64,000 bases of DNA. Source: Leptonemataceae bacterium (lineage in GTDB: Bacteria; Spirochaetota; Leptospiria; Leptospirales; Leptonemataceae). Positions 20,356 to 64,000 of the stretch are shown in pieces (within the stretch, counting starts at the first letter, position 1; every line of letters starts with the position of its first letter). The position numbers were made by a program, and so were the translations under genes. The DNA lies in assembly GCA_965227295.1 (NCBI GenBank), contig OZ245742.1:2912001-2976000 (forward strand). Reading direction: 5' to 3'. Below the pieces are notes generated by a model. The model was not told the DNA's origin. It saw nothing but the letters and a program-made list of their open reading frames with translations, and did not search any database.

Positions 20356-20372
20356 GTCGGCCCGAAGAGGGT

Positions 20373-20544: not shown

Positions 20545-20611
20545 AGAGGTAAATTAGCGAAGTAAGGCCGCGGTGGTCAAGTAAGTCCCAGGCGGTGGTC
20601 TCTCGTTCGGC

Positions 20612-21166
20612 ATGCTGGAAAAAATCGAAGCACGACGGCTGGCCCGCGCGGCCTGGAAAGATTTCCTGCGCGAGCCGGACCGAATAGAACGCCTCGGCGC
20701 ATTGTTGCGCGCGGAACTTGTGAGTGCCCGCGGTCGCCTGCTGATCTACCTCGCCCTGCCGGATGAATTCGATCTCCTGCCCTGGCTTCGCGAGTTGCCG
20801 GAATCGGTGGAACTCTTTGCGCCGGTCACTTTTGCCGATCGTATGGAGTTTCGCCGCTTCTTGTTGAAAAGCGATCGGGCCGTGCCCGGGTATCGAAACG
20901 TTCCCGGCCCGTCGCCGCGGGCCGAGGCCCTGGCCTGGCCGCTGCAACCGGAGGACGTTGCCGTGATTCCCTGCCTCGGCGTGAATGATCGCGGTTTTCG
21001 TCTGGGCCGGGGCGGAGGATACTACGATCGTATGCGCGCGGAGCTTATGCCGGCGCGGCGCATCGCGCTTTTGCCGCGCGAGTTAAGTGTTATGTCGTTC
21101 GCGGAAGAGGCGCACGATTTACAACTGAACGATATTCTAACGGACGGGGGAATCGTCCGAAGATAA
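20612..21166 (+). CDS. ygfA: 5-formyltetrahydrofolate cyclo-ligase
   Basis: VIPCLG, RLGRGGGYYDR, EAHD; start position uncertain. Confidence 0.9.
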   Translation: MLEKIEARRLARAAWKDFLREPDRIERLGALLRAELVSARGRLLIYLALPDEFDLLPWLRELPESVELFAPVTFADRMEFRRFLLKSDRAVPGYRNVPGPSPRAEALAWPLQPEDVAVIPCLGVNDRGFRLGRGGGYYDRMRAELMPARRIALLPRELSVMSFAEEAHDLQLNDILTDGGIVRR

Positions 21167-21219: not shown

Positions 21220-21735
21220 ATGGACTACGGCAAACTCATACCCGGCGTCGAATTTCTCGGCGATAACCCCGATGAAGAAGGCGCCGGCGAAGACATTCAT
21301 CAGTTTTTAACCTTCGCCGTGGCCGGTGGTGAGTACGGCATCGACGTCCTCGACACCCATGAAATCCTGAAGCCCGTGCTCGTTACGCGGCTGCCGAACG
21401 TAGAAGACGACGTCCTGGGCGTCATCAATTTACGCGGAAACATCATCCCCATTATCGATTTGAATCGCAAGTTTCGCGGCGAGTTCAGCGTCGTGGACGT
21501 GCAGTCGCGCATCATCGTCGTTCACCATCGTGGCAAGTACACCGGACTGTTGGTGGATCGGGTCCTGGAAGTCGCCCAGGTGCCGGAGTCCGGCCTGGAA
21601 GGCTCCGAGGTGCGCGGCCTGTCGAACGAGTACATCGAGGGCGTGGGTCGCAGCAAGGAGCGCCTGTTTCTGATCCTGAACCTGGACATCATCATCAATC
21701 GTCCCGCGGCGGAAATCCAGGAGGCACAGAGCTGA
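21220..21735 (+). CDS. cheW: Chemotaxis adaptor CheW
   Basis: QFLTF, GVINLRGNIIPIIDL, GLLVDRV. Confidence 0.95.
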   Translation: MDYGKLIPGVEFLGDNPDEEGAGEDIHQFLTFAVAGGEYGIDVLDTHEILKPVLVTRLPNVEDDVLGVINLRGNIIPIIDLNRKFRGEFSVVDVQSRIIVVHHRGKYTGLLVDRVLEVAQVPESGLEGSEVRGLSNEYIEGVGRSKERLFLILNLDIIINRPAAEIQEAQS

Positions 21736-24700: not shown

Positions 24701-24854
24701 GATCGACGAAAAAGAAGGCAAGGGTGCCGAAGCCCGCGGCCTCAAAGTGCTCTACATCACCGCCGACTTCTTCCGCCAGGACCTGGAGTTCCTGGGACGA
24801 CTGTTCATGATTCCGTCGTCACGCTCCCTGGCCAGAGTGGTAAACAAACTCTGA
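21735..24854 (+). CDS. cheA: Chemotaxis kinase CheA with C-terminal CheC-like domain
   Basis: Hpt FRSAHTLKS, NNVGELVI, HLLRNSMDHGIE, DDGRG, SGRGVGM, CheW domain; C-terminal about 200 aa CheC-like with ELINI. Confidence 0.95.
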   Translation: MSDSNQERYLDIFLEEASEQIDNLNESLLRLEKEGAQDGIINELFRSAHTLKSAAAFVGFDRLSALSHSMEDLLQKVRDDELQISTELANLFFQIVDRIRSFLSKVSAGQEAPEEFDDLTQAIESYAAGGGSVAQSTSEQKLADPPPAAPAVTAEPAGAAAPAESSPPAASTASASGGDKMEFIQLSAEEEEELRSLAGSKNIFDGCVRLDRDSAMKNMRYLLLFENLKREANLFRSHPGSEALEGDEDIEALRFIVYGDIDRAKLAAVCQVDMVEEVRLAEHAVPGAARRRQDMDSGQESRIQSKNIKVSSEKIDYLMNNVGELVIINSGLQKIYEDMQTNMGESAALSELKNKIDQAERIARDLQSGIMKTRMIPVGLVFHRFTRPVRDLSLEMNKDVELEFHGEDTELDKNIIDALSEPLLHLLRNSMDHGIESAEERAKTGKPPAAKLALNSYQSGNNIIIEVSDDGRGLNRQRIFQQAVKKGLVNPDADLRDEEVYDLIFHSGFSTADAVTDISGRGVGMNVVKKMVEDFKGNVQIVSTPGQGTTFLLSFPLTLAIFSAIIVSLKDEEYAFPLADVVETIKVSQDEITSLQGRDIINLRGDILPVFHLGEIMGFPPEEEVEEFPVLIAMSANRKVGFIVDGLNGKREIVIKSLEQNFKSVRGLIGASIMGDGRIIMVVDVQGLLDMTQRRGLKELPGRQLEEVHDATEAYAAVQAYNERVAELIEQQRQSAMEWEFGFDEELAEERRKVEAQALATGVAAGTSAPAPAAIPADSRAGDSRDTSRMMRDEMERRPDSGGSGRADTIPARPVAPMPGEAAPAAPAPEKERAAPLRELSEEDYQKLFSLISTGMTNAGGVLSQLLGVKVEVSVPEFKTMEYSDLRGHMPKGGLLASAVEAEEGMDAVVLLVFDETTGYQAAGDLMGVPQEQWGPDGISDEDLGSVLMELINIVGASVLNEMSNKTGLTITPTVPEFRRGDSEKIVQWIDEKEGKGAEARGLKVLYITADFFRQDLEFLGRLFMIPSSRSLARVVNKL

Positions 24855-34216: not shown

Positions 34217-34227
34217 ATTTGTTGCGA

Positions 34228-34545
34228 TTCGCAGCCGCCCCGAACAGTGGGGTAAGTGGCGGCCAATGTGGGCTGAGCCTTTTATGGTTACGACTGGTTC
34301 CAGGCGACAACGGTTGTAGGGCGGGGGAGCGCGGTTGTGGGGCGCACCGGAACAGCGTCTTCGTCGTGAAAATCGCAGCTGCCGGGATCAACACAGTTGC
34401 CGATCCGCGTCCGGGTCGATGCGGACGTTCTTTGCAAAACGACTCACCACAACTCCGAAGAGCCGTAGCAAAAAAATCCCCTTCTCAATCCCGCAACTTA
34501 CCCTGCGAGTCTCACGGCCAACGCCGTGAAGTACAGCGCCACGAA
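34228..34545 (+). repeat. 328-bp repeat family, single diverged copy
   Basis: Shares GCCCCGAA..GTAAGTGGCGGCCA, CTGGTTCCAGGCGAC, GGCGCACCGGAAC.GCGTCTTCGTCGT, TCTTTGCAAAACGA and CCACAACTCCGAAGAGCCGTAGC with 49081-49408, in the same order. Confidence 0.9.
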
Positions 34546-34594
34546 TCAGGACATTAGTTGACTGATGTCGTTTGTCGTTTTACTCATGTCGCAG

Positions 34595-38054: not shown

Positions 38055-38969
38055 TTACGGAAAACCCGGCAGCGGCCGTCCGTCTTCGAAGCCGCCTTCT
38101 TTCAGTTGTTTGATGATGGCCTGTTTCGCCTCGTCGTCGAGGAGTTCCCAGTACGGCAGTTCGCTCAGGCGGTCCTCCAGGGTTTCGTAGGGTTCGTCGT
38201 CGTCGAAGGGATCGAAGCCGGCCCAACCTACCAGAAAGTCGAAGAGTTCGCCGGGATTCAGTCCCAGGCGCAGGCCCAGGAAGAGGCCGGCCTGGATTTC
38301 CAACTGCGTGAAGTAGTAAGCGGGGGCCCAGTCGGTCTCGTCGCTTTTTAAGAGGGAACGATAACGATGGGCCGGCTCTTCGGTGCCGAAGGGGGCCAGG
38401 GCGTGCATGAGTTTGCCCCGGGGTCCCAGGACTACCGGATCTTCATTAGCTGTTTGTGCGTCATTGTTAGCGGGCCGGCCTTCGCCCGCGGCCGCATTGT
38501 TCGCGAGGCCGGAAGAACTCTGCGAGGCCGGCAGACCGAAGAGGCCGCCGTCTTCGCCGGATTCGTCGCCATCTCCGGCGTCCCCGTCGCTCTCTACGCC
38601 CTCGTCGTCTGCCTCGTCCCGCTCCGGTTTCCAGTCATCGAAGCGGATCTCTTGATCGTCGAAGTACGACGCGCCGAAGAAGAACGCGGTAAAGTCCGCG
38701 GAGTAGTGCCGCCCGGCATCGCCGCCGCGCAGTCCGTACGAGGCGCCGTCCTCGGACTTGTAGTTCAGGCCGGCCTTGAGCGGACCCGTGCGCACGGAGG
38801 CGCCGTAGGAACCGGTTTCCACCTCGGCGGTGAGGACGTCTTTCGTGTCGTTCCAGCGATTGCGGACGTACTCGCCCGTGCATTGGGAGGTTAAGAGAAG
38901 TACAACCACCGAGGCGCCGAGGGCTCCGAGGTTTTTTCTGGAGGGTTTCTGTCTGATTGTGGTCATCAT
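38055..38969 (-). CDS. Putative lipoprotein (resembles leptospiral LIC13411-type family); paralog of 52355-52948
   Basis: LLTSQC lipobox, YVRNRWNDTKDV, C-terminal GLRLGLNPGELFDFLVGWAGFDPFDDD. Confidence 0.65.
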   Translation of the reverse strand: MMTTIRQKPSRKNLGALGASVVVLLLTSQCTGEYVRNRWNDTKDVLTAEVETGSYGASVRTGPLKAGLNYKSEDGASYGLRGGDAGRHYSADFTAFFFGASYFDDQEIRFDDWKPERDEADDEGVESDGDAGDGDESGEDGGLFGLPASQSSSGLANNAAAGEGRPANNDAQTANEDPVVLGPRGKLMHALAPFGTEEPAHRYRSLLKSDETDWAPAYYFTQLEIQAGLFLGLRLGLNPGELFDFLVGWAGFDPFDDDEPYETLEDRLSELPYWELLDDEAKQAIIKQLKEGGFEDGRPLPGFP

Positions 38970-39695: not shown

Positions 39696-39817
39696 GGGGG
39701 GCAAAGCCCCCCTGGCTGCGGCCTGCGTCGCTTCGCGAACGCGCAGGTCTCGCCTGCGGCGACCGCGCCACCCTCCGGGCAGCGCTGACCTGCGCTCGCA
39801 GTCCTCCGCCACCCCCC
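39696..39817 (+). repeat. Structured element family A, copy 2 (free-standing)
   Basis: Collinear with 8345-8468 with compensatory substitutions. Confidence 0.8.
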
Positions 39818-46714: not shown

Positions 46715-48598
46715 ATGGATGAAAACGACGTACAGTGGATCGGTTACCTCATGGGTTTCTTGAGCGTCGCGCCCATGATGCTGCTCATGAGCGCAAAGAC
46801 CGTGAAAGAGTACGGCGGGCTGCTCGGCGCCGTATGGAAGCGACACATGCAGGATACCGGCCGCGAGCAGAAGCTCATGAGCTTGGCGGTACTTGCGGGC
46901 ATGGGCGCCGGCCTCGCTTCCATTCCCGTGGTCCACTGGATCTACGAAGTGTTTTTTCCGGGACTCGAGACCTTCTTCCGGCCCCGGGAGCCGGTGTCCG
47001 TGGTGGTCTTCATTTCGTTCGTGCAGGCCGGCTTACTGGAAGAGGTCGCCAAGATCGGTCTGGCCTTTCCCGTGGCGTTGCTCGTAAGTTATCGTTCGTT
47101 TGTTGTCGGGGACGGGCCGCCGGAAAAGCAGCGGCCGTTTCACAAGTCGGTGCCGTTCGTATTCGCCGGAAGCGGCCTCGGTTTCGCGCTGCTTGAAAAC
47201 AGCGGCTACATCCAGGCCTTCGGCGATCTCAGCCCGGGCGGCATCTTCGTCGGTCGCGCGCTTTTCGCGACGAGCGTGCACACTATGTTGAACCTCTACG
47301 CCGGTTTGATCATCTACGATTCGAACCGTGCGAACGTGATCGGCCGCTCCGCCGTCGCTCTCGGTGCGGCCATTCTGCTGCACGGAGTATACGATTTTTG
47401 CGCGCTGCCGCAGGGCACTTTTCCTGGTTTATTGACCGGACTGTGTGTGGTTGTGATCTTTTATCTGACGGCTACGAAGTTGTATCGCACGTTGCCGGAG
47501 TGTGTGCATCATCCGTTGCGTTCACGCGCCGATATCGAAGCCGAGGCCCGTGACGCCCTTTTCGGAGACACAGCCGCTCACGACGAAGACGACCAGGCCA
47601 TCCTGCGCAACGAACGTCTGCGGGCCCCGGATACCTACGAGCCCGGCGGCGCGCTCCCCGACGCCGATCGCGTGGACTTCAGCCCCGAGGCGCGCGCGGC
47701 GGCCGGCCTGCCCGCGGCCAACGACTATCGTCTGAGCGAAGCCGAGCGCTGGCATCGCATCCTGTCGACGTTGCCCGACGTTTCGCCGGACTTCATCGTC
47801 GCGTTCCTGAACGACTCGCATCGTACGACGTTACCGGCCTGGTCGGCGGCGCCGCCGTACAGTGTCGACGACATGGAAGACGCCTTCGCTTCCCTGGGCG
47901 TGCCGGCCCCGGCGGACGTGGCGCAACCTCTGCGCTTAGATTCATATCGCGGAGAGTTACCGGAACACATGCAGCACGAACGCGAAAGGGAAGAGCGGCA
48001 CTATGCCGCGGTGCTCACCGGACGCGGCAGCGCCGATGCCGTCTGGGATGCTTCGGCCTTCGCGGGTCTCGGGACGGAGGCCCTGGGTCGCACCGGGGTG
48101 GATCTGCAAAACTTGAGCGCGCCGTTGCGGGTCCTTGAGTTCTTCGTGCACAGTTGCGGGGAACGACGCGTCTATTTGAGCCAGGGGCTGCGCGATCTCT
48201 ACGGCCGGGAACTGTGGCTGAGCACGTCGCATCCGCATCCCCTCGCGCGCTGGTTTTTCGTGTGGCTGGCCGCTCATCCGCCGGAGCAGTCTCCCTGGCT
48301 GCGGGACTTTCGCGCGTTTTACGAAGCAACGTCCCTGCACCTGGGGGACCCACGGAACTGGTGGAAGCTTTATTTTACTCTGCCGCTTTTTGATAAGCTG
48401 CGCGAACGCCTGCTGAAACCGCCCGGGGATTTGAAACCGGTTCATGAAGACGAGTTGCCGTTTCAGGTGCTGTTCACCTGCGGCCCGGACGCGGACTTTC
48501 TTTCCCGGCGCGGTTACGAGTCGTACTTCCGCGCGCTGCGCCACGCCGGCCTGCCGTGGCACAATGATTTCCGCCGCCCGCCGATCACCACGGCGTAG
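46715..48598 (+). CDS. PrsW-family intramembrane metalloprotease with long C-terminal soluble domain
   Basis: GLLEEVAK, GLGFALLEN, SVH, LLHGVYDF. Confidence 0.85.
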   Translation: MDENDVQWIGYLMGFLSVAPMMLLMSAKTVKEYGGLLGAVWKRHMQDTGREQKLMSLAVLAGMGAGLASIPVVHWIYEVFFPGLETFFRPREPVSVVVFISFVQAGLLEEVAKIGLAFPVALLVSYRSFVVGDGPPEKQRPFHKSVPFVFAGSGLGFALLENSGYIQAFGDLSPGGIFVGRALFATSVHTMLNLYAGLIIYDSNRANVIGRSAVALGAAILLHGVYDFCALPQGTFPGLLTGLCVVVIFYLTATKLYRTLPECVHHPLRSRADIEAEARDALFGDTAAHDEDDQAILRNERLRAPDTYEPGGALPDADRVDFSPEARAAAGLPAANDYRLSEAERWHRILSTLPDVSPDFIVAFLNDSHRTTLPAWSAAPPYSVDDMEDAFASLGVPAPADVAQPLRLDSYRGELPEHMQHEREREERHYAAVLTGRGSADAVWDASAFAGLGTEALGRTGVDLQNLSAPLRVLEFFVHSCGERRVYLSQGLRDLYGRELWLSTSHPHPLARWFFVWLAAHPPEQSPWLRDFRAFYEATSLHLGDPRNWWKLYFTLPLFDKLRERLLKPPGDLKPVHEDELPFQVLFTCGPDADFLSRRGYESYFRALRHAGLPWHNDFRRPPITTA

Positions 48599-49810
48599 TT
48601 CGTATACGCCCCGAATCGTGGTGTAAGTGGCGGCCAGCGTACATTAAGGATTTGTTGGGCACAACTGGTTCCAGCTGACGAGCGGAGGTCATGCCAGGGA
48701 ATGTGTTAAGGCGGACCGGAACGGCGTCTTCATCTCGAAAAATCCATCAAGCGCAGGCGCACTCCGGAGCCCCGCTCTATCCGCGGGGCGGAGCGAGTGC
48801 GCCTGCGCGCCCGGCGGACCGGACCGGCGTCTTCGCCGCAGGAAACGTTACTATAACTGAGTCACATACCGACGTCCGGTGTCGGCAAGGCCCCACTTGT
48901 TGGGGCCGCGGCAGTTGGTTCCCCGCTGGCGCAGCACTCTTTGCAAAACGAAAATCCACAACTCCGAAGAGCCGTAGCCAAAAAAATCCCTTAACCGTTG
49001 CGCAACTTACTTCATGTTCGTCGCGGCAACGAAACGAACCGCAGTTCTTGAAGTACCGGAAACGCTCTGGTAGCCCGCGCACGCCCCGGATCGTGAAATA
49101 AGTGAAGGCCAGTGTACATTAAGGCTTTTATGGGTACGGCTGGTTCCAGGCGACCACGGAGGTTGTGTCGGGGAATGTGGTACGGCGCACCGGAACGGCG
49201 TCTTCGTCGTAAGAAACGTTCCGATCGCTGAGTCACAAATCGACGTCCGGGTCGAACGCAGCATTCTTTGCAAAACGAAAATCCACAACTCCGAAGAGCC
49301 GTAGCCAAAAAAATCCCTTCACCATTGCGCAACTTACCTTGTGTGTCTCACGGTAAACGCCGCGATACACAGCTCTTGAACTACCGGAAAGTTCTTATTC
49401 GTTCGCACACGCCCCGAATCGTGGTGTAAGTAGCGGCCAGTTTGTATTAAGCATTTTATGGGCACAACTGGTTCCAGCTGACGAGCGGAGGTCATGCCAG
49501 GGGACGTGGTAGGGCGGACCGGAACGGCGTCTTCATCTCGAAAAATCCATCAAGCGCAGGCGCACTCCGGAGCCCCGCTCTATCCGCGGGGCGGAGCGAG
49601 TGCGCCTGCGCGCCCGGCGGACCGGAACGGCGTCTTCATCGTAAGAACCGCTGCGGGAACTGAGTCGCACAACCGACGTCCGGGTCGAACGCAGCATTCT
49701 TAACAAAACGAAAATCCACAACTCCGAAGAGCCGTAGCCAAAAAAATCCCTTAACCGTTGCGCAACTTACCTTGTGTTTCTCGCGGCAACGCAACGAACC
49801 GCGGCTCGCA
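48599..49810 (+). repeat. Head-to-tail array of three 328-bp family units
   Basis: ACGCCCCG anchors at 48606, 49081 and 49409. Unit 2 is 328 bp; units 1 and 3 carry hairpin inserts. Confidence 0.95.
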
Positions 49811-49838
49811 ACTCATTTTGTGAATTTACTGCCGCGAT

Positions 49839-52354: not shown

Positions 52355-52948
52355 TCACGGAGCAGAGGTTTGTGGATCGTCCGCGGCCTCCGTACTTTCG
52401 CGCGCGAATCTTTCGTAGTAGCTCGCCGCGTCGTCGTCCAGGAAATCGACGCCGGCGAATCCGGCCAGAAAATCCAGGAATTCCAGCCAGTTCAGTTCCA
52501 CGGTAAAGCCCATCACACCGAGACCGAGGGAAAGTTGCAAGCGCCCCCATTGATACAGGGCGAACTCCGGATCGTCGCTGTCCGTGCAGGATTGTTTGTG
52601 GCGCAGCACGTACTCCGCGGGAACTTCCGGCGTCGGAAATCGGCTGATGCCCACCGCTTCCCGATGTAACAGCCAATCGCAGCCGAACCCGAGGCCGAGC
52701 GTCGCGCGATGAACGGACCCACCAGGATCGCCTCCTGACCGGTGTCCGCGACTGCTGTTATGGACCCCCGCGCCCGCGCTCACGGGGCCTGCCGACGCCG
52801 TCAATCCGGCGGATAAAAAGTCGAGACTGAAACCGGCGATATCACCGGCGTCTTCCAGGCGATCCCGGGAGCGGGCCGTTGTGGAAGCGCAGGCCGTCGC
52901 AAGGCCCAGCATCAGAATCAGGATGATGTTCCAGCCGGTCTTATGCAT
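52355..52948 (-). CDS. Putative lipoprotein, paralog of 38055-38969
   Basis: ATG 52948, LATAC lipobox, RDRLEDAGDI, LNWLEFLDFLAGFAGVDFLDDD. Confidence 0.7.
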   Translation of the reverse strand: MHKTGWNIILILMLGLATACASTTARSRDRLEDAGDIAGFSLDFLSAGLTASAGPVSAGAGVHNSSRGHRSGGDPGGSVHRATLGLGFGCDWLLHREAVGISRFPTPEVPAEYVLRHKQSCTDSDDPEFALYQWGRLQLSLGLGVMGFTVELNWLEFLDFLAGFAGVDFLDDDAASYYERFARESTEAADDPQTSAP

Positions 52949-53876
52949 CGGGCAGAATCCTGAGCAGGGCGGGGTCGCTGTCCCCCCGGCAGAAAAAACC
53001 GCCTCTCTGGTCAAAATCAAAGTCCCCTTCGTCTTGCGTGCATTGAAAGGTTTCGTCCGTGTTTCCCAGGCCGTCGCCCGTGAGCTGCCAGTAATATTCA
53101 CCGGGCGTAAGTTTAAGCTGCCGCGCGCTGATTCGATAGAGGCGGGCCGTGCGTTGCGTGCGCGGATCCGTGCGCAGCTCCACTTGCTGCTCCGGAATGA
53201 CGAGCGTGCGCATCGGTTCCGCCGTGTCGGCGGCGTGGAGGACGAGGCGATACTCCGCGTAGTGCCAGTCGTCGTTTTCGTCGCCGATTAAGAACCACAC
53301 GAATACAATGGTATCATCCGCCGCGAACTCGCGTTCCGTAATCGGATGCACCGGCACGATGGGGATTTCCCGCGGGGGAAAGGCGAAGGACGTCGCCGTC
53401 GTGGTGAGCGCGCACAAGACCACGCCCGCGATTTCGACGAACGCCGGATGCCGGTGCGGTTTCGCGTGCTTGCGTCCGCCGTAGATCGGTACGAGGAGCA
53501 GCGGCAGACACAGCAGGTCCGTAACATCGGCCGTGCCGCGAAACACACCGCCCCCGACTTCCGGGAGCAGACCGTGCAGCGCGTCCGACCACGCCTGGTC
53601 CAGATTGATGGCGACGAACAGCAGGCCCGTGCATGCGGCGCTGATAATCGTGAGCGTGCGCCGGTTCGCGCACGTCAGCCAGTGCAGCGCACTCGCCATG
53701 GCCACGGGGAAGACGATCAAACTGGCCACGTCGCTTAGCTTTCCCGTCACGTGGGTTAGCGGCGTGTCGGCGAAAGCGGCTTTGAAGATGTGGTCGTTCG
53801 CGATCCAGAGAATCAGGAAGAACCAGAAACGCGCATCCCTGGCGCGAAGAAAAAATTGCTCAGTACTTCCGCGCAT
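52941..53876 (-). CDS. Conserved hypothetical membrane protein
   Basis: NDHIFK...TGKLSD...DVTDLLCLP multi-TM module plus a beta-rich C-terminal domain; start uncertain. Confidence 0.7.
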   Translation of the reverse strand: MRGSTEQFFLRARDARFWFFLILWIANDHIFKAAFADTPLTHVTGKLSDVASLIVFPVAMASALHWLTCANRRTLTIISAACTGLLFVAINLDQAWSDALHGLLPEVGGGVFRGTADVTDLLCLPLLLVPIYGGRKHAKPHRHPAFVEIAGVVLCALTTTATSFAFPPREIPIVPVHPITEREFAADDTIVFVWFLIGDENDDWHYAEYRLVLHAADTAEPMRTLVIPEQQVELRTDPRTQRTARLYRISARQLKLTPGEYYWQLTGDGLGNTDETFQCTQDEGDFDFDQRGGFFCRGDSDPALLRILPDA

Positions 53877-54683: not shown

Positions 54684-56450
54684 ATGCACTTCAGCTCCGG
54701 CGATCTGATCGTCATCGTCCTCTACTTCGCGGTGAGCCTGGGCGCGGGCATTCTGCGTTCCCGCCGCGCGTCGTCGTCGTTGACGGACTACTTTCTCTCC
54801 GGGCGTTCCGCGCCGTGGTGGCTCGTCGGCACCGGCATGGTGGCCACGACCTTCGCCGCCGATACGCCGCTCTGGGTCGCCGGCAAGGTCGGCTCGCACG
54901 GCATCTCCGGCAACTGGCTGTGGTGGTCGGCGGCGGCGGGCGGCATGCTCACGGTTTTTTTCTTCGCGCGATTGTGGCGACGCGCGGGAGTGCTCACGGA
55001 CCTGGAGTTCATCGAACTGCGCTACGGCGGACGCACCGCTTCGTTTCTGCGCGGCTTCAAAGCGATCTACTTCGGCGTCTTCATGAACTGCATCGTCCTC
55101 GGCTGGGTAAACCTGGCCATGTTGAAGATCGTCGGTGTCTTCTTTCCGGAGATTGCGCATCCGGAATGGATCGTAACCGGCATTGCGCTCGCGACGCTCG
55201 TGTACGTCGCCGCGGCCGGACTGTGGGGCGTGATGATCGCCGACGCCTTTCAGTTCGCCGTGGCCCTCGGCGGTTGCATCATCCTCGCGTATTTTGCCGT
55301 GCAGCATCCGGCGGTGGTTGAGGCCGGCGGCCTGGTGAATGCATTGCCCGCGCAGAGCTTCGATTTTTTTCCGGACTTCGGTGATGGCGGCGCGGGTTTT
55401 GAAAAGATCGCGTTGAGCGCCTTTCTCGCGTACGTGATGATTCAATGGTGGGCGTCCTGGTATCCGGGCAGCGAGCCGGGCGGCGGCGGTTACATTGCCC
55501 AGCGCATCATGTCCGCGAAGGACGAACGTCACGGCATGCTGGCCACGTTGTGGTTTGTGATCGCGCACTACTGCGTGCGTTCCTGGCCCTGGATCATCGC
55601 CGCGCTGGCCGCGGTGGTGATTTATCCGGATCTCGGCGGCGATGAACGTGAGGCAAGTTTTGTCTATTTAATCCGCGACGTTCTGCCCGCGCCCCTCCGC
55701 GGTCTTCTGGTGGCCGCCTTTCTCGGCGCCTATATGTCCACGCTGTCCACGCATTTGAACTGGGGCAGTTCCTACGTCATCAACGACTTCTATTTGCGGT
55801 ACTTCGCCGGCACCCGTGCTAACCGTTCGCAGGACGATGTTAGCGCGGATCACATTTTGGCCTCGCGGATCGTTACGGTATGCATTGCCGTGCTCGCGCT
55901 CGTGGTTTCATTCTTTCTCATGGACAGCATTCGCGGGGCCTGGGATTTTCTTTTGAGTATTACCGGCGGCATGGGTTTCGTTTTGATTCTGCGCTGGTAC
56001 TGGTGGCGCATCAACGCCGTGGCGGAGCTGGTTTCCATGATCGCCCCTCTGGTCGCCCTGTTGCTGCTGTGGGTGGCCGAGGCCGCGTTCGGTTTTCAGC
56101 CGCCGGGGGCGCCGGAGAATCTGTACTTCGTCGTGCCGGTTTCGATTTTCGTAACTCTCGTTGCCATGTACTTAAGCAAGCCCGAAGGCCGGACGGTGCT
56201 GGCAGAGTTTTGTGCCCGGGTGCGCCCGCCCGGGCCGGGCTGGAAGGCGATCACCGGCAGGAGCGAAGCCGGCCTTGGCCGGGCCTTTGTCGGCTGGGCG
56301 GCCTCAGTGGTGCTCGTCTATGCCGCGTTGTTTTTCGTCGGCGCGTTGCTTTTTGAAATCTACGACCGCGCCGCGATCCTTGGTGCCGTGGCATTGATGG
56401 CGGCGTTCGTGGTTCGGGAAGTGATTCGCCGCGAGTTTCGGAAAGATTGA
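54684..56450 (+). CDS. Sodium:solute symporter family protein
   Basis: DYFLSGRSAPWW, ATTFAADTP, FIELRY, AQRIMSAKDE, AYMSTLS. Confidence 0.93.
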   Translation: MHFSSGDLIVIVLYFAVSLGAGILRSRRASSSLTDYFLSGRSAPWWLVGTGMVATTFAADTPLWVAGKVGSHGISGNWLWWSAAAGGMLTVFFFARLWRRAGVLTDLEFIELRYGGRTASFLRGFKAIYFGVFMNCIVLGWVNLAMLKIVGVFFPEIAHPEWIVTGIALATLVYVAAAGLWGVMIADAFQFAVALGGCIILAYFAVQHPAVVEAGGLVNALPAQSFDFFPDFGDGGAGFEKIALSAFLAYVMIQWWASWYPGSEPGGGGYIAQRIMSAKDERHGMLATLWFVIAHYCVRSWPWIIAALAAVVIYPDLGGDEREASFVYLIRDVLPAPLRGLLVAAFLGAYMSTLSTHLNWGSSYVINDFYLRYFAGTRANRSQDDVSADHILASRIVTVCIAVLALVVSFFLMDSIRGAWDFLLSITGGMGFVLILRWYWWRINAVAELVSMIAPLVALLLLWVAEAAFGFQPPGAPENLYFVVPVSIFVTLVAMYLSKPEGRTVLAEFCARVRPPGPGWKAITGRSEAGLGRAFVGWAASVVLVYAALFFVGALLFEIYDRAAILGAVALMAAFVVREVIRREFRKD

Positions 56451-56468
56451 GCGAGTGCGCCTTCGCTT

Positions 56469-57197
56469 TGCGGAATTGTGAAGGGGTTTTGATGGCTACG
56501 GCGAAGCGGGAGTTGTGGTGATTCGTTTTGCAAAGAACGCTGCCAGTGGGGAACCAACTGCCGCGGCCCCAACAAGTGGGGCCTTGCCGACACCGGACGT
56601 TGGTTTGCGACTCAGTTACCGCAGCGTTTCCTGCGACGAAGACGGCGGGGACCTATGCTTTCCGCTGATGCGGAAAGCCGGCGGTTCAGAACTCTCGCCG
56701 AAGCGAGAATTCTGCCGGTGCGCCTTACCGCATTCCCCGGCATGACCTCCGTTCATCTGCTGGAACCAGCCGTACCCAAAAAAGTCTTAATGCAAACTGA
56801 CCGTCACTTACACCACGATTCGGGGCGTGCGCAAACTGTCCGAGCGTTTCCGGTAATTCAAGGACTGCGGTTCGTGACTGTTGCTGTGAGACACATGAGG
56901 TAAATTGCGCAACGTGAAAGGCCTTTTTTTGCTACGGCTGAGCGGGAGTTGTGGTGATTCGTTTTGCAAAGAACGCTGCGTTCGACCCGGACGTTGGTTT
57001 GCGACTCAGTTACCGCAGCGTTTCCTACGACGAAGACGCCGGGGACTTATGCTTTCCACATTCCCCGGCATAACCTCCGCACGTCAGTTGGAACCAGTTG
57101 TGACCATAAACGGCTTAATACAAACTGGCTGCTACTTACACCACGATCCGGGGCGTGTGCGAATAACTGGAGCATTTCCGGAAATTCAAGAGTTGCG
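56469..57197 (-). repeat. Head-to-tail array of about 2 units of the 328-bp family, reverse orientation
   Basis: GGGGCGT anchors end at 56828 and 57156 (328 bp apart); the reverse complement matches the 48599-49810 units. Confidence 0.95.
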
Positions 57198-57492
57198 ATG
57201 CGCGCGGAATGATTACTAAGTATGGTTTATATTTCGCGGGGCCCTCTTAAAGGTCTTCAGGCTTGCACTGCGAATATTGTTTCGATTCCTGCCGTTCGGC
57301 CGAATCATTTGCAACGTCGTTCACATGCTAACAGCCCCGGCGTGAATCGCTGCACAACACTCATCTTTTTAAACTTTATGAATCGTTAAGCCTCGCTTCG
57401 CGGCGTTTCTGTTTGTGCCGCACGCCTTGTTCGTTGTAGCGGTAAACCTCCGCCCGGGACCGGCGGTGCAGTTACAACGCGGAGTAAACTTC

Positions 57493-57858: not shown

Positions 57859-58331
57859 GTGCGGGACTGAGCATGCGTCCGTTCCTCGACGCCCTTAATC
57901 GAACCCTCGCCGACATGGCCGACGAACATCCATCCAACAGTGACATCGTCCGCTGCGAGGGCGAACGGGTGGTCTCGGACGTGACCGCGAGCGTGGGCAT
58001 CTTCGGTCCGGAGCCGGGGAGTCTGATCCTCGTCATGAACGCGGCGGTGGCCCGGGATCTGTGCAAACGCACCACGGGCCGCAGCGATACCGAACTGGAG
58101 GATCGCCTGGTCCTCGACGCGGTGGGTGAACTGATAAACATGATCGTCGGGGTCGCCGGCGGAGCGAGTTCGGTGCGGTTCGACTTTTCCCTGCCGGTTT
58201 CCACCGGGGTCGAAAGCCACGAAGTGCGCATCTTGCGCAGCACGAACTTTGAGAAAGTCGTATCGAAGATTTCCTCCGGTGAGGTCGCGTTGTATCTGGT
58301 GCACGGTAGACTGCCCCCGGCCGCGAGCTAA
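57855..58331 (+). CDS. CheX-like phosphatase
   Basis: DVTASVGIFG...GSL, LDAVGELINMIVG (ExxN), FSLP; ATGA overlap with the regulator. Confidence 0.8.
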   Translation: MSAGLSMRPFLDALNRTLADMADEHPSNSDIVRCEGERVVSDVTASVGIFGPEPGSLILVMNAAVARDLCKRTTGRSDTELEDRLVLDAVGELINMIVGVAGGASSVRFDFSLPVSTGVESHEVRILRSTNFEKVVSKISSGEVALYLVHGRLPPAAS

Positions 58332-58338
58332 GTACACC

Positions 58339-61300
58339 ATGCTTAAACTTAAGGGATACGAGCTCGGCGAGCGCCTCTACGGCGGCGAGCGCACGGCGGT
58401 CTGGCGTGCGGTGCGCAGCGCCGACGGCGTGCCGGTCATCGTCAAAGTTCCGCGCCGGGATGCGCCGCCGGAGGAACGTGCGAAACTGCGCCAGGAATTC
58501 GAAATCGCCCGGGAGCTGGCGCAGGAAATCTCCGGCGTGGTCCGCCCCCTGTTCCTTGAGTTGCCGGAGGATGCGAGCGCGGGCAGCGGCGCGGTGCTGA
58601 TTCTGGAGGACGGCGGCGGCATGTCTCTCGCGCAGTTTCTGGAACAGGGCGTGCCGGACATCGATACGGCCCTGGAGATCGCCGTGCAGATCGCGAGCAT
58701 CCTGGGCGAGGTGCATGCCCGGGGCGTCGTGCACAAGGACGTGAAGCCGCACAACATCATCCTCGAACCGCGCGAACTTCGAATTCAACTTACCGACTTC
58801 GGCATTTCGTCGAGGTTAAGCCGGGAACATGCCGTCTCCGGAATACCCGGACGCCTGCAGGGGACCCTGGCCTACGTAAGCCCGGAACAGACCGGGCGCA
58901 TGAATCGCCTGGTCGACAACCGCTCTGACTTCTATTCACTGGGAGTTACTCTGTATGAGTTAGTCACGGGATTGCTTCCGTTTCCGCATGCGGCGGATGC
59001 CCTGGAATTGATCCATCATCACATCGCCGTGCCGCCGCGCTCTCCGCTGGAACATCGCGCGGACGTGCCGCCGTCCCTCGCGGCCGTGATGATGAAACTG
59101 CTCGCCAAGAATGCCGAAGATCGTTACCAGAGCGCTTACGGCCTCTTCCACGACCTGGACGAAATTCGAACCTGCCGCGCTCAGTTCGGCAACGGCACCG
59201 CGCCGGAACTCGTTGAACGTTTCGAGCAGAGCTTCGTTCCCGGGCGCCAGGATGTCTCCGATCGTTTTCAGATTCCGCAGAAACTCTACGGCCGCGAAGA
59301 GGAATCCGCTCAGATGTTGCAGTCCTTCCAGCGTTGTGCCCGCGGCCGAAGTGAACTGTTGTTAGTGGCCGGCTTTTCCGGCATCGGTAAATCGGCGTTG
59401 GTTAACGAGGTGCAGAAACCCATCACGGAACGCAAGGGCAACTTCGTCGCCGGCAAGTTCGATCAGTTTCAACGCGACCTACCGTACAGCGCTCTGTTGC
59501 AGGCCTTCGGCCGATTGATCCGCCGGCTCCTGGGCGACGAGCAGAGTACGGTGGAGATTCGGGCGGAGCGGCTGCGGGAATGTCTGGGACAGAACGGTCG
59601 CGTGCTTACGGATGTGCTTCCCGAACTGCAATGGCTGATCGGTGAACAACCGCCGGTGGTGGAGCTCCCTCCGGCCGAGAGTGAGAATCGCTTCAACGCC
59701 GTGTTCCGCGATTTCGTGCGGGCCCTGGCCGGCGAAGAACATCCCCTGGCGATCTTTCTCGACGATTTGCAGTGGGCGGACGCGTCGAGTCTTAAGTTAA
59801 TCCGAACAATCATTACCGATACGGACACGAACTACTTTCTAATCATCGGTGCTTACCGGGACAACGAAGTGGACGCGGCGCATCCGCTTACCGCGCTCAT
59901 GGAACGCTTCGCAAACGAAACAGAGCAGCGCCTGACCGTGATTACGCTCGCCCCGCTGAATCGGGAAACGCTTAAGTCCGTCGTTGCGGAGACCCTGCAC
60001 GTAAGTTCGGAGGAAGCCCGGGGCCTGGCGGACCTGGTGCATGCGAAGACCGGCGGCAATCCCTTTTTCGTAAACGAGTTTCTGCGCACATTGCACGACA
60101 AAGCCCTGGTGCAGTTCGATGCCGGAAGCGGCCGCTGGGGTTGGGACCTGGAACGCATCGCCGCCGAGGGCATCACGGATAACGTGGTCGAGCTGATGGC
60201 GGATCGCATTCGGGATCTGCCGCCGGAAACCGGGCGGGCGTTGCAGACGGCGGCGTGCATCGGCAACGTTTTCGAGCTACGAGACCTGGCGCGTTTCCTC
60301 GAACGTGAGATCGGTGCGACGGCGCGTTTGTTACGTGAGGCGCTCAATGAAGGTTTGATCCTGGCCCTGGATCAAAACTACAACTACGCCGAGAGCGAAG
60401 AGCTGGATGTTTCGTATCGTTTCCTGCACGACCGCGTGCAGCAGGCCGCCTATGAACTCATCGACGCGGCCGAACGTCCGGCCCTGCATTTGCGCATCGG
60501 CCGGGAGATGCTCACTTTCGGCGAACAGGAAATCGAAGACGATCTCTTTACGCTGGTAAATCATCTGAACGAGGGCCGCTCGCTCCTCGACGACCTGGAC
60601 GAGCGTCGGCGCCTGGCCGAGCTGAACTTACGGGCCGGGCGCAAGGCCCTGGCCAGTACGGCCTACGCTTCCGCCGCGCGTTTCTTAAGGTTCGGCGTCG
60701 AGATGTTAGGCGAGTATCACCGGGAAGAGGACAATCGACTGTGCCTGGATTTGTACTTGAGCCTGGCCGATGCCGAGTCCCTGCGCCCGAATTTTGAAGA
60801 AGCGGAACGACTGATCGAGTTGCTCTTCGAGCGCGCGACGGAGCCGCTCGATCAGGTCCGGGCCGGGCAGATTCGTACGCGTATTCTGAACGCGCGCAGT
60901 CGCATTGCGGATTCTCTCACGGCCGGTCTGGAAAACCTCGGTCGCCTGGGCGTGCACATTCCGCAACGCCCGTCGGCTGTGCGCGTCCTTCGAGAATTTG
61001 GACGCACACTCCTGGTCGTCATGCGGCGCGGCCGACGTTATCCGTTGCGCGCGAAGCAGGTGGAGGCTCCGGTCATCCTGGCGGCGCTGAACGTTCTGGA
61101 CGATACGGTCTCCGTCGCGTACCAACAAAACGCTAACGTACTCGCAATCATCATTTGTAAGATCGTGCAGTTGACGTATCGCCACGGACTGTCGCGCTAC
61201 GCGCCCTTCGGTATCGCCGGTTTCGGTTATTTGAACCTGGTGGCCTTCGAACGTTTGAAGGCCGCCAGGTGGTACGTGGACCTGGCGCTGCAATTGCTCG

Positions 61301-64000
61301 AAGCGGGTTACGGGCGTGAGTCCATCGGCCGGGTCAACGTTTTTGCGTACGCCTTCGTCGGTCATCGTCACTCGCCCTGGGCGCGGCACTTCACGGCCCT
61401 GGAGAACGGCGGTCGCGAGGCCCTGGTTTCCGGGGACGTCGAGTACGGCATGTACGGTTTTCTATTTCGCGCGAACCACGCCGTGTTCGCGCACGAGAGC
61501 CTCGCAGAACTCGCGGAACGTTTCGCAATGACCATCGACCAGGCGGACAAACTCGAAGCCGGCCAGAGCGGTGATCCGGCCCGGGTGTGGGCTCAGTTCG
61601 TAGACAACCTGCGGGGCCGCGCCGATGATCCGGCGGTACTCCGCGGCCGCTACCTGGATCATGAGCTGGCCGTCGAACATCATCTGGCGAACGGATATAA
61701 GGGCGGTGCCGCCTGGACCCTGTGCGCGCGCTCCATGCTGCGCTACCTCTTTGATCGTGAAGGTGACAACGCTGGCGACCTGGCCGCGGCCCTGGAGTTC
61801 GAGGAAAGCCTCGCGAATATGGTGGTCCTGCCGTACATCTACATGTTTCAAATTTTAGCGACACTCGATAATTTCCGGAAAGAATCTCGTCGCGAACGTC
61901 GCCGGCGCCTGAAGATCTATCGTAAGGCCAGGCGGTTCCTGGGACTGTGGGCGCGGGGTTGTCCGCAAAACTACGAGCATCTGTTATTATGGGCGGAGGC
62001 AACGCATCTATTAGAAACGGGACGGGAAGAAGAGTCTCTTGCGATTTTCGATGCAGCCGTGCGTGCGGCACGGCGAGCCCGTTCGAATCTCGGTGAAGGC
62101 CTCGTACTCGAAGCCTCCGCCAGGGCCTACGAGAGCTGCGGGCGGGAGGTGATGGCCCGGGCCTGTGTCGAAGAATGTCGGGCCGTGTTTCGCAGCTTCG
62201 GCGCCGAAGCAAAGGTGGAACAACTGGAAGAACGTTACGCCGCGTACTTTCGTTCGAAGCGCGGCGGCGGGCGTTCCAACCGGGAGACTTCCAGTTCCGA
62301 AGTCACCATGCTCGACGTCGCGGGGGGTGTGGACCTGGACCTCGGCGCCGTGATGGAAGCGGTGGGGGCGATTTCGTCGGAGGTGCGATTCAAACCGCTG
62401 CTCGAACGCCTGACACATAGCCTTCTGGAAAACAGCGGTGCCGATCGTTGTTTCATTCTACTGAGTTACGATGACAAACTATTAGTGCACGCCGCCGGCC
62501 GGCGCGATGCGGACTCCGGGATCCGCATCGAGTTGCGTGAGGCGGAAGCGCCCGCCGAAAAACTGAGCGCCGGTGTTGCCGATGTCCGAAGCAGTCGGCA
62601 GATGAAAATTACCGCCGGCGGCGAAACAACGGAAGTCGCGGCACCGATTCTGTACCAGGGCCGTCTCGACGGCGTTGTGATCCTGCATACCGCGTTGCCG
62701 TTCCAGGACGCCCACGCTGGCACCCTGGATCTTCTATGCGCTCAGGCCGCCATCTCCCTGGATACGGCGCGGCTCTACGAAGAACTGGAAGGCCAGGTGC
62801 GCTCGCGTACCCGGGAATTGCGCCGATCCCGACGCGAAATGTACGACATCATGGACAACGTCAGCCAGGGCCTTCTGGTCCTGGATCGGCACGGTCGCCT
62901 GGGCAATGAGTACTCGCGCAGCGCGGCAGAAATCCTGGAACGCGACGATCTGGGCGGGTTGAGTTTTTATCGTCTCTTTCCCGACGCAAACGTGCGCCGG
63001 TCTTCGGCCGCTCTGGTGGAGCAGCTCTTCGAAAACGGCTTCATGTCCGCGGCAATGTTCGACCGGGCGAACTCGCTGAAAGGCTATCGTTATCTGTATG
63101 TGGACGCGGATCGCAAGCAGGCCGTGAAGATCCTGGACTTCGGTTTTTCCCGCATGCTGGCCCACGGGAGCGGAGACTCCGGGGCCGTGCAAAAATTGAT
63201 GGTGACTATCGAAGACCGTACACGGGATTATCAACTGGAACGCGAACTGGAGCGCCGCAAGGTCGAACAGGAAAGTCGGGTGGAGAAACTCTACGAAATA
63301 CTGCGCCTCGAACCGGCGGTGTTTTCCGGGTTTCTCAACGAGGGCCGCGAGGGCGTGGAGTTTTTGCGCGGGCGCATTGCCGACCGCGGTGTGGACGGAA
63401 CGGAGAACCGTACGATCCTGGAAGATTGTCTGCGCGCGGTGCACGCGCTGAAGGGCAACGCCGGTGTCATGAACCTGGATACGATCGCCCGGCGCGCGCA
63501 TACGCTGGAGGACCGTCTGGAAGATTTGTGCCGCCGCCTGGATGAGAATCAGGAGGATTATCGTCTGGATGAAGACGGCGTGGAGGCGGTGGTCGAGGGC
63601 CTCGCCGATCTCGAAGAAGAACTGCGCGATGGGGACCGGGTCTTCCAACGCGTGCTGAACATCAAGCAGGCCCTGGGCGGAAACGAGGGGCCGACCTTCG
63701 AATCCCTCGAAGAGTACTTTCGCACGGCGGTGGAGCGTGCCGCGCGACAGGCCGGCAAAGACGTGCGCTTCGAGTTTCTGCGTCGCCCCGGCGTTTCCAG
63801 TGCCGATGCATCCTTGATTGATGACATCAAAAATCCCATTACCCAACTGTTGCGCAATTCCGTGGGCCACGGCATTGAAACCGACGAGCAGCGGCGTCGC
63901 GCTTCGAAAGAACTGCCGGGCACCGTCCTCGTGGAGGTGGATACGATCTATGTGACGGCAGCGCAACGTTTACTGCACGTCACGGTGCGGGACAACGGCC
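58339..64000 (+). CDS. Giant hybrid kinase: Ser/Thr kinase, AAA/STAND ATPase, helical region, GAF, PAS, Hpt, CheA-type HATPase (3' end outside window)
   Basis: All motifs are in the frame of ATG 58339, and the ORF track shows no terminated ORF in that frame: HKDVKPHN, DFG, GTLAYVSPE, GFSGIGKS, FLDDLQWAD, GGNPFF, FLHDRVQQAAY, AQAAISL, VHALKG, LLRNSVGHGIE, RDNG. Confidence 0.9.
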   Translation, partial: MLKLKGYELGERLYGGERTAVWRAVRSADGVPVIVKVPRRDAPPEERAKLRQEFEIARELAQEISGVVRPLFLELPEDASAGSGAVLILEDGGGMSLAQFLEQGVPDIDTALEIAVQIASILGEVHARGVVHKDVKPHNIILEPRELRIQLTDFGISSRLSREHAVSGIPGRLQGTLAYVSPEQTGRMNRLVDNRSDFYSLGVTLYELVTGLLPFPHAADALELIHHHIAVPPRSPLEHRADVPPSLAAVMMKLLAKNAEDRYQSAYGLFHDLDEIRTCRAQFGNGTAPELVERFEQSFVPGRQDVSDRFQIPQKLYGREEESAQMLQSFQRCARGRSELLLVAGFSGIGKSALVNEVQKPITERKGNFVAGKFDQFQRDLPYSALLQAFGRLIRRLLGDEQSTVEIRAERLRECLGQNGRVLTDVLPELQWLIGEQPPVVELPPAESENRFNAVFRDFVRALAGEEHPLAIFLDDLQWADASSLKLIRTIITDTDTNYFLIIGAYRDNEVDAAHPLTALMERFANETEQRLTVITLAPLNRETLKSVVAETLHVSSEEARGLADLVHAKTGGNPFFVNEFLRTLHDKALVQFDAGSGRWGWDLERIAAEGITDNVVELMADRIRDLPPETGRALQTAACIGNVFELRDLARFLEREIGATARLLREALNEGLILALDQNYNYAESEELDVSYRFLHDRVQQAAYELIDAAERPALHLRIGREMLTFGEQEIEDDLFTLVNHLNEGRSLLDDLDERRRLAELNLRAGRKALASTAYASAARFLRFGVEMLGEYHREEDNRLCLDLYLSLADAESLRPNFEEAERLIELLFERATEPLDQVRAGQIRTRILNARSRIADSLTAGLENLGRLGVHIPQRPSAVRVLREFGRTLLVVMRRGRRYPLRAKQVEAPVILAALNVLDDTVSVAYQQNANVLAIIICKIVQLTYRHGLSRYAPFGIAGFGYLNLVAFERLKAARWYVDLALQLLEAGYGRESIGRVNVFAYAFVGHRHSPWARHFTALENGGREALVSGDVEYGMYGFLFRANHAVFAHESLAELAERFAMTIDQADKLEAGQSGDPARVWAQFVDNLRGRADDPAVLRGRYLDHELAVEHHLANGYKGGAAWTLCARSMLRYLFDREGDNAGDLAAALEFEESLANMVVLPYIYMFQILATLDNFRKESRRERRRRLKIYRKARRFLGLWARGCPQNYEHLLLWAEATHLLETGREEESLAIFDAAVRAARRARSNLGEGLVLEASARAYESCGREVMARACVEECRAVFRSFGAEAKVEQLEERYAAYFRSKRGGGRSNRETSSSEVTMLDVAGGVDLDLGAVMEAVGAISSEVRFKPLLERLTHSLLENSGADRCFILLSYDDKLLVHAAGRRDADSGIRIELREAEAPAEKLSAGVADVRSSRQMKITAGGETTEVAAPILYQGRLDGVVILHTALPFQDAHAGTLDLLCAQAAISLDTARLYEELEGQVRSRTRELRRSRREMYDIMDNVSQGLLVLDRHGRLGNEYSRSAAEILERDDLGGLSFYRLFPDANVRRSSAALVEQLFENGFMSAAMFDRANSLKGYRYLYVDADRKQAVKILDFGFSRMLAHGSGDSGAVQKLMVTIEDRTRDYQLERELERRKVEQESRVEKLYEILRLEPAVFSGFLNEGREGVEFLRGRIADRGVDGTENRTILEDCLRAVHALKGNAGVMNLDTIARRAHTLEDRLEDLCRRLDENQEDYRLDEDGVEAVVEGLADLEEELRDGDRVFQRVLNIKQALGGNEGPTFESLEEYFRTAVERAARQAGKDVRFEFLRRPGVSSADASLIDDIKNPITQLLRNSVGHGIETDEQRRRASKELPGTVLVEVDTIYVTAAQRLLHVTVRDNG

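Follow-up and report, generated by a model that had tools for sequence, protein, structure and literature searches.

Large non-coding repeats built on a unit of about 328 nt occupy three intergenic gaps, all inside 23 kb, of a Leptonemataceae chromosome. The repeat is real and belongs to no annotated family. Its non-coding nature, the block-wise constraint on its sequence, a strand-specific hairpin and a set of long-range complementarities are directly supported by the observations below. As our leading reading, held tentatively, we propose that the units are RNA-level terminator or insulator modules of 3′ intergenic gaps that have been amplified by unequal recombination, with a conserved core acting on the strand opposite to the one assigned by an earlier, first-pass annotation of this DNA.

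Six diverged copies at three loci

Repeat search and MAFFT alignment identify six homologous units of about 328 nt in the window (the whole stretch of DNA analysed, 64,000 nt). They are listed here with the strand on which each is proposed to act:

Copy A, 34217-34564, minus strand (R orientation; read as plus in the first-pass annotation): single unit; nhmmer match 34228-34542, E = 1.2e-86
Copy B1, 48599-49073, minus strand: begins at the first base past the stop codon of a prsW-like gene; has optional modules X and Y
Copy B2, 49074-49401, minus strand: basic 328-nt unit without insertions; nhmmer E = 9.3e-99
Copy B3, 49402-49838, minus strand: has module X, then a partial fourth junction block; reaches the stop codon of a cNMP-binding gene (49839)
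Copy C1, 56870-57215, plus strand: nhmmer match 57163-56857, E = 3.2e-96; preceded, in the first-pass orientation, by a unit tail of about 25 nt
Copy C2, 56451-56869, plus strand: nhmmer match 56835-56468, E = 1.6e-79; has module Y and an insertion of its own

Locus A holds one copy, locus B (48599-49838) three and locus C (56451-57215) two, the last array being inverted; C2 is cut off past its CGCAA block, leaving 19 nt between its end and the stop codon of a symporter gene (56450). The distance from unit start to unit start is 328, 327 and 328 nt without insertions and 475, 433 and 436 nt with them. An nhmmer profile of the six copies recovers each of them from the 64-kb window (E 7e-42 to 9e-99) and detects no seventh, the next-best matches having E > 2.9. 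The 18-base core CCACAACTCC-N5/6-GCCGTAGC occurs six times in the window against 0.00 expected, and CTGGTTCCA six times against 0.38. Tandem Repeats Finder reports nothing at the three loci, probably because of indels. Repeat search, MAFFT and nhmmer thus agree with the original description of a head-to-tail unit of about 328 bp in at least six copies at three loci. Because the copies differ from one another by 5-40%, depending on the segment compared, the arrays are unlikely to be an artefact of assembly.

The units are non-coding. No frame is kept open through all copies, as had been noted at first inspection, and none of 15 ORFs called in the arrays has a Pfam match below E 0.005. ORFs of at least 18 aa with a hydrophobic stretch do not recur, the single match lying in copy A only. 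The best-conserved pair of ORFs is 78% identical in nucleotides and 57% in amino acids, with 11, 15 and 13 differences over the three codon positions.

Arrays fill gaps behind stop codons

The arrays fill the intergenic gaps in which they lie, and at two of the three loci the flanking genes are convergent (neighbours of copy A assigned with Pfam):

Gap of copy A: hisG (stop 34216) to a Zn-dependent phospholipase C-like gene (start 34565), filled over its whole length
Gap of array B: prsW-like gene (stop 48598) to the convergent cNMP-binding gene (stop 49839)
Gap of array C: sodium:solute symporter gene (stop 56450) to a convergent hypothetical ORF

Every locus adjoins a stop codon, as first reported (hisG 34216, prsW 48598, symporter 56450 and cNMP-binding 49839). 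A homologue of the prsW-like protein, 78% identical, has the same length and the same C-terminal end; with this terminus native, array B begins at the first base past a genuine stop codon. The first-pass view that the repeats cannot be promoters of their neighbours is borne out for arrays B and C and fails for copy A, which immediately precedes a co-directional gene at 34565.

None of the copies has a transposase, HUH or RT gene beside it, a feature that the first-pass annotation had suggested looking for. Transposase ORFs occur in the window only at 8420-10077, 24 kb from the nearest copy, and a Pfam scan of 46 window ORFs detects no HUH gene. GC skew displays no origin or terminus feature near the arrays. 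A neighbouring 598-aa ORF falls among TonB-like clusters in a protein-atlas look-up, an observation with no bearing on the repeat.

Invariant blocks alternate with optional modules

Of the 296 gap-free alignment columns, 138 are invariant, and these are clustered. Seven invariant runs of at least 7 nt (CGCCCCG, CTGGTTCCA, CGTCTTC, CGTCCGG, CAAAACGA, CCACAACTCCG and GCCGTAGC) compare with 0.72 expected, and 0 of 5000 shuffles reach seven. Between conserved blocks the units accept optional modules, to which no strand is assigned:

Module X, B3 49513-49640 and B1 48710-48838: 78-nt segment between two 25-nt direct repeats
Module Y, B1 48880-48927 and C2 56548-56592: hairpin insert of 44-48 nt
Insertion private to C2, 56668-56722: at the module X site; two hairpins

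The 78-nt segment of module X folds into a hairpin of -50 kcal/mol (fold z -4.2 and -4.9). Its 25-nt direct repeats are identical in B3 and differ at three positions in B1, the module adds 103 nt (the spacing of the repeats is 103), and B1 and B3 agree at 81 of 81 positions. Module Y is 100% identical over 45 nt between B1 and C2, though these lie in different arrays. One hairpin of the insertion private to C2 has a UUCG loop on the strand favoured by the first-pass annotation. Modules X and Y do not occur beyond the units, except for a fragment of 14-16 nt resembling an arm of X at the truncated end of array C.

Different parts of a unit have different closest relatives. Identity in the 5′ module is 94% for B1/B3 and 88% for B3/C1; in the middle it reaches 96% for C1/C2, and in the 3′ module 95% for B2/B3. 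Conservation is lowest in the junction region, with 35-78% identity. Such mosaic identities suggest that units cross over unequally within an array and are exchanged between arrays. Copy number would have gone up and down by unequal crossing-over, and gene conversion would have turned the copies into mosaics. From the alignment, the arrays run roughly from u28 to u12, from u2 to u16 and from u300 to u262, and such differing end phases argue against a fixed recombination site. An earlier claim that terminal inverted repeats are lacking is correct for the ends of units and arrays; inside the units, long-range inverted repeats do exist. The short dyads reported at the same time are kept unevenly: TTTGCAAA is present in five of six copies, GTTGCGCAAC is perfect in two and its core TTGCGCAA present in four, and TCGAC-n6-GTCGA is perfect in B2 only.

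A terminator-like hairpin on the opposite strand

On the strand opposite to the first-pass one, each unit contains a hairpin, R2, with a U tract behind it, and each arm of R2 has a second, distant and conserved partner. These features are new to this analysis and are placed as follows:

R2 in B2, 49283-49304, minus strand: CUACGGCUC-UUCG-GAGUUGUGG, then AUUUUCGUUUUG; nine pairs, three of them G-U
R2 in the other copies, from a scan for terminator-like hairpins: 48956-48977 (minus), 49716-49737 (minus), 34443-34472 (minus), 56929-56957 (plus) and 56495-56518 (plus)
S1, 49126-49141, minus strand: complementary to S2
S2, 49297-49312, minus strand: U run and 5′ arm of R2, about 155 nt from S1
S0, 49157-49167, minus strand: reads CAYRACCUCCG in R orientation; complement of the R2 3′ arm apart from one bulge

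R2 is present in all six copies, with three invariant G-U pairs and a U-rich tail, and sits within the two longest invariant blocks. On the proposed strand it folds with -11.8 to -18.2 kcal/mol, compared with -1 kcal/mol on the opposite one; because of the three G-U pairs, the hairpin forms on one strand only. Copies B1-B3 fit the intrinsic-terminator pattern, with nine pairs, a UUCG loop and the tail AUUUUCGUUUU; the stem includes the three G-U pairs and has about -12 kcal/mol. The stems are extended in A and C1, and A, C1 and C2 have an interrupted U tract. R2 looks like an intrinsic terminator in its sequence, and as a terminator it would be weak.

An orientation-neutral search for inverted repeats detects the S1:S2 complementarity over 16 nt at 88% (18 nt at 89% in array C). 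Over the six copies 78 of 84 cells pair, compared with 39-54% when the partner is slid, and all three variable pairs change only between Watson-Crick and wobble. In the pairing of S0 with the 3′ arm of R2, 49 of 60 cells are Watson-Crick, 7 are G-U and 4 are other; the S0 motif CAYRACCUCCG is conserved in five of six copies. A further helix, TAAGU:ACUUA with GCG:CGC, encloses both pairings. On the proposed strand, the wobble positions of five helices chosen after the sequences had been viewed (R2, S1:S2, S0:R2 3′ arm, TAAGU:ACUUA and the TCGAC hairpin) are 13 G-U against 3 A-C (binomial p 0.021), or 43 G-U against 4 A-C when counted by cells. The first-pass annotation had read the units of A and B on the plus strand; the strand-specific signals, R2 with its U tract and the wobble ratio of 13 to 3, favour the opposite one, and it is on that strand that the units most likely act, as judged from these signals.

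When folds are computed across unit junctions, S1:S2 together with S0:R2-3′ is the minimum-energy structure at two of three junctions, and at the third the minimum-energy fold is the terminator with an S0:S1 hairpin. With the junctions split in this way, the terminator and long-range states appear close in energy.

A tentative model for convergent-gene boundaries

We infer transcription, termination, any switching and the recombination history from these features. In the model that we tentatively prefer, the conserved core works on the opposite strand as RNA or, at a minimum, in single-stranded form, and each unit would end in R2 and its U tract. Past the stop codon of a convergent gene the first R2 lies at a distance of about 100 nt in B3 (cNMP-binding gene) and about 45 nt in C2 (symporter gene), so the arrays would end, and possibly stabilise, the transcripts of these genes and keep antisense transcription from running into the gene on the far side. 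Copy A counts against this model, as no convergent gene lies directly upstream of it on the proposed strand.

With S1 and S0 as second partners of the R2 arms, a unit could in principle alternate between two states, the terminator fold and an extended long-range pairing. Carried further, each unit might be a self-contained RNA switch in which four mutually complementary segments choose between terminator and antiterminator, and a series of units might form a tandem conditional insulator; we regard this stronger version as improbable.

Folding, covariation and promoter searches

Results that speak against a structured RNA deserve as much weight. Units without inserted hairpins are no more stable than their dinucleotide shuffles, with z between +0.64 and -1.06: whole-unit folds of B2 give -1.06 and -0.05, local folds of B2 and C1 +0.34 to -0.56, the junction segments +0.64, +0.45 and -0.39, and circular monomers -0.08 to -1.06. 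A long-range rod in whole units lies 5-25 kcal/mol above the minimum-energy fold. RNAalifold, applied to both strands, returns no credible consensus, only implausible long-range structures.

Across the six copies, no S1:S2 pair is altered on both sides, and all 500 shuffles attain the column-shuffle control for S1:S2. Counted without regard to strand, the full set of local stems with at least seven pairs yields 21 G-T against 25 A-C, with no asymmetry. Strand bias alone is no proof of RNA, because single-stranded DNA also tolerates G-T pairs, and with six copies from one genome recent descent is inseparable from selection as the source of conservation. No sigma-70-like promoter is detected in or adjoining the arrays in either orientation, by scan or by eye.

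Alternative explanations

Nearly as likely as the terminator model, and so a serious though tentative possibility, is that the arrays are selfish or neutral satellite-like DNA with no host function. Units would have reached the short gaps by homologous or illegitimate recombination, or with the help of an unknown enzyme acting in trans, and then multiplied in place by unequal crossing-over; recent descent, conversion tracts or sites recognised for mobilisation would account for the invariant blocks. This reading accommodates the tight filling of whole gaps, the presence of three loci within 23 kb and a fourth elsewhere in the genome, array ends at differing unit phases, mosaic copies with optional modules and slippage-type indels, the lack of excess folding stability and the failure to find a relative in the other collections searched. 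The ends, however, have neither terminal inverted repeats nor target duplications, no transposase, HUH or RT gene adjoins the copies, and neutral DNA predicts neither the clustered invariance nor the strand-specific wobble bias.

Tandem sibling sRNAs are a known arrangement, and the units could be sibling ncRNA genes, each with its own promoter and an RNA of about 300 nt ending at R2, in which UUCCCC and ACCUCC could be anti-Shine-Dalgarno seeds. It would suit such genes that U runs flank the terminator-like hairpin of every unit, that hairpin insertions are tolerated in the variable stretches between conserved blocks, and that CAYRACCUCCG is kept in five of six copies. The arrays nevertheless contain no promoter-like site, the junction region is the part least conserved (35-78%), and there is no folding signal and no Rfam match, so that we consider this explanation doubtful.

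An array of DNA sites for a regulator or nucleoid protein, with the short palindromes as operators, is unlikely. Conservation does follow sequence blocks rather than structure, and short dyads are available (TTTGCAAA, TTGCGCAA and CTGGTTCCAG, with ATTTCCGGAAAT in C1), but the dyads are not in all copies (5/6, 4/6 and 1/6), a DNA site does not predict strand-specific wobble bias, and no candidate protein emerged: the DnaA box, parS, matS, dif and CRP sites were compared by eye and none fitted.

These alternatives overlap with three readings offered by the first-pass annotation, a mobile satellite, a long ncRNA and a protein-binding array; it had included a rolling-circle or viroid-like variant, and this part has lost support, because no ribozyme or other Rfam family matches and circular folds are no better than shuffles. 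Integrated concatemers of a small circular replicon, whether viroid-like, retrozyme-like or rolling-circle, would explain arrays that run head to tail and end at arbitrary phases, and the nested long-range complementarities are closed whichever circular phase is taken. Direct tests disfavour this origin: ribozyme and other Rfam models give no match at E up to 10 in array B or up to 1 in A and C, circular monomers have the shuffle-like z values given above, no RT or HUH gene is nearby, and phage and plasmid collections contain no match, leaving it very improbable. Least probable of all is a tandem type I toxin-antitoxin or small-protein locus like E. coli LDR or Sib, for which an excerpt of PMC2887945 gives tandem intergenic repeats of a few hundred bases as a hallmark, as direct tests again disfavour it: no hydrophobic ORF of at least 18 aa recurs (the one match being private to copy A), the best ORF pair is less similar in amino acids than in nucleotides with its differences spread over all codon positions, and Pfam has no match.

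Relation to known repeat systems

Intergenic repeat families are a known kind of element, and by analogy the present one is most like BIME/ERIC mosaic repeats and tandem sRNA/LDR repeats, while the defining features of each are missing. The first-pass annotation had set aside CRISPR, integrons, MITEs and short VNTRs, and each exclusion is upheld. A CRISPR array has repeats of about 23-50 bp and unique spacers of similar length; here units of 328 bp abut, are homologous over their full length and leave no unique spacers. An integron cassette or attC array is rejected because the whole unit is repeated with no unique cassette content, and the recombinase encoded nearby is XerD (373 bits against a cut-off of 330), failing the integron-integrase model (163 bits against 265). 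For a classical MITE, the inverted repeats are internal only at all three loci, with no flanking duplication at array ends and hence neither terminal inverted repeats nor target duplication; nor is the repeat a short VNTR. IS200/IS605-type PATE elements carry subterminal hairpins at both ends for a Y1 HUH transposase and insert by a fixed tetra- or pentanucleotide; the 46 window ORFs scanned include no HUH gene.

REP/BIME and ERIC repeats form part of transcribed 3′ UTRs, and their hairpins there influence termination and mRNA stability. Like the present units they are non-coding, exclusively intergenic, often placed behind stop codons or between convergent genes, and able to carry optional internal modules. 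REP/BIME, with palindromes of 20-40 nt in alternating order and a RAYT in the genome, was rejected on unit size and on head-to-tail order. The unit of 328 bp contrasts with 20-40 bp for REP and about 127 bp for ERIC; the units here do not alternate, none is one imperfect palindrome, and no REP-associated transposase is seen in the window. This comparison draws on excerpts of the REP and BIME literature (PMC2817692 and PMC3184786), and an excerpt of PMC2864571 also served for the known-system comparison.

LDR/Sib repeats and tandem sibling sRNA genes are likewise head-to-tail, a few hundred bases long and present at several loci, and end in a hairpin and U tract; unlike them, the present units have no conserved small hydrophobic ORF, no detected promoter and no Rfam match. 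Type I toxin-antitoxin repeats, defined by a small hydrophobic ORF and an overlapping antisense RNA, were rejected, as no such ORF recurs among the units and there is no coding signature. An attenuator or riboswitch platform similarly has four segments that form either a terminator (3:4, with 1:2) or a long-range pairing (2:3, with 1:4), whereas here segments 2 and 3 are about 140 nt apart and thermodynamics and covariation lend no support. No aptamer, leader peptide or regulated downstream gene was found that would make the units an attenuator with a sensor; because the arrays face the 3′ end of a convergent gene, they would have no downstream gene to control.

Eukaryotic satellite DNA consists of tandem head-to-tail monomers with mosaic variants, and eukaryotic satellite and retrozyme repeats share with these arrays a monomer of about 330 bp, head-to-tail order, arbitrary end phases and mosaic variants. 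The present arrays differ in lying on a bacterial chromosome, in having one to three units each, and in lacking a self-cleaving ribozyme and rod-like stability. Viroid-like or retrozyme RNA, which has a ribozyme and a highly stable rod, was rejected as a class, with no ribozyme family detected and circular z in the range of shuffles.

Distribution

Applying the criterion that a covariance-model score reach the gathering threshold of its family (Rfam 15), the only match in the whole window is 6S RNA at 20370-20546, and none falls in the units. Permissive Rfam scans of the three loci give at best 19-21 bits against gathering thresholds of 45-99, so that a known Rfam family, which the first-pass annotation had proposed to look for, is absent from every locus. 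Nothing tRNA-like is detected in the units by ARAGORN, and blastn of the 1.2-kb array B against plasmid and phage collections gives no match. The 18-base core, scanned as the pattern CCACAACTCCN{5,6}GCCGTAGC over 185,579 species genomes (the source genome not among them), occurs at 29 loci. In nhmmer comparisons homology never continues past the pattern; for this reason, and because a rough estimate of the chance number is about 34, all 29 are taken as chance matches.

A search of 5.8 billion proteins with a spurious 106-aa antisense ORF of B2 returns one match, P0001 (184 aa). By tblastn P0001 covers about 1.7 units and lies wholly inside such an array; its contig, of 5,938,550 bp, is exactly as long as the one that carries the PrsW-like protein of the window, which suggests that the genome has at least a fourth locus of two or more units. 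Searched by phmmer against 1.84 billion representative proteins, P0001 matches itself only. As far as these indirect searches reach, the family appears restricted to this genome, and excerpts of the literature on bacterial intergenic and tandem repeats and on multicopy sRNA contain no description of such an element.

Implications

If the units act as RNA, they would represent a hitherto undescribed family of large regulatory or terminator repeats, found in a lineage from which few relatives have been sequenced, and an intergenic repeat that supplies transcription boundaries between convergent genes. Were the improbable switch version true, they would form a new class of bacterial regulatory RNA module of about 330 nt that also spreads as a repeat, and the tandem insulator would set how far antisense transcription reaches into the neighbouring gene. 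If they are only selfish DNA, they would be rare bacterial satellite-like arrays with a monomer of about 330 bp, which could serve to mark strains and to study unequal crossing-over and gene conversion. Under any of these readings annotation pipelines may call false ORFs on the units, as exemplified by the 184-aa P0001 in the public protein set.

Array C boundary and the gene call P0001

Sequence resembling module X, the optional hairpin insert of repeat copies B1 and B3, also turns up where array C is truncated. Immediately 3′ of the symporter stop codon, at 56449-56468, a stretch of 14-16 nt matches one arm of the module-X hairpin exactly; an array boundary thus bears X-like sequence too. 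P0001, an annotated 184-aa ORF outside the window that is carried in both NCBI and ENA, falls wholly inside a tandem array of ~328-nt units and almost certainly represents a spurious gene prediction.

An apparently split transposase gene

An IS5/IS1182-type transposase gene in the window looks split, with its halves on two neighbouring ORFs:

8420-10077, minus strand: IS5/IS1182-type transposase halves on two adjacent ORFs (DDE_Tnp_1_6 and DUF772)

At its edge, a 109-nt stretch (8360-8468) is 82% identical to 39708-39816, where the predicted class I (Trp/Tyr) tRNA synthetase ORF begins. Given this identity, the synthetase ORF may open with the leftover end of an IS and not with coding sequence.

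PrsW-like protein and RNA gene calls

Among 8000 candidates scored, the 627-aa PrsW-like protein (46715-48598, plus strand) has one relative with E < 1e-20, which is 78% identical and encoded on a 1982-bp contig. This scarcity of relatives suggests that the lineage is sparsely sampled.

Two RNA genes were called in the window:

20370-20546, minus strand: 6S RNA (Rfam RF00013, 98 bits, full length)
19533-19625, minus strand: tRNA-Arg(tcg), 93 nt (ARAGORN)

In E. coli, 6S RNA is co-oriented with the 5-formyltetrahydrofolate cyclo-ligase gene. By contrast, the cyclo-ligase gene adjoining 6S RNA here (20612-21166) lies on the opposite strand. The tRNA-Arg(tcg) is probably a false call; it falls within a 271-aa ORF that bears several short tandem repeats (19350-19776) and is without a Pfam match.

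Signalling and chemotaxis genes, and sub-threshold adhesin matches

Four further ORFs gave domain or family-model matches:

58249-63999, plus strand: very large ORF, >1917 aa, open at the window end
21735-24854, plus strand: CheA, 1039 aa, in a cheW-cheA-cheB cluster
38055-38969, minus strand: LIC13411-family adhesin model match, 112 bits, sub-threshold (cut-off 150)
52355-53101, minus strand: LIC13411-family adhesin model match, 29 bits, sub-threshold (cut-off 150)

The very large ORF combines Ser/Thr kinase, AAA_16 ATPase, GAF and Hpt domains. In CheA, a CheW-like domain is accompanied by a weak CheC-like match at the C terminus.
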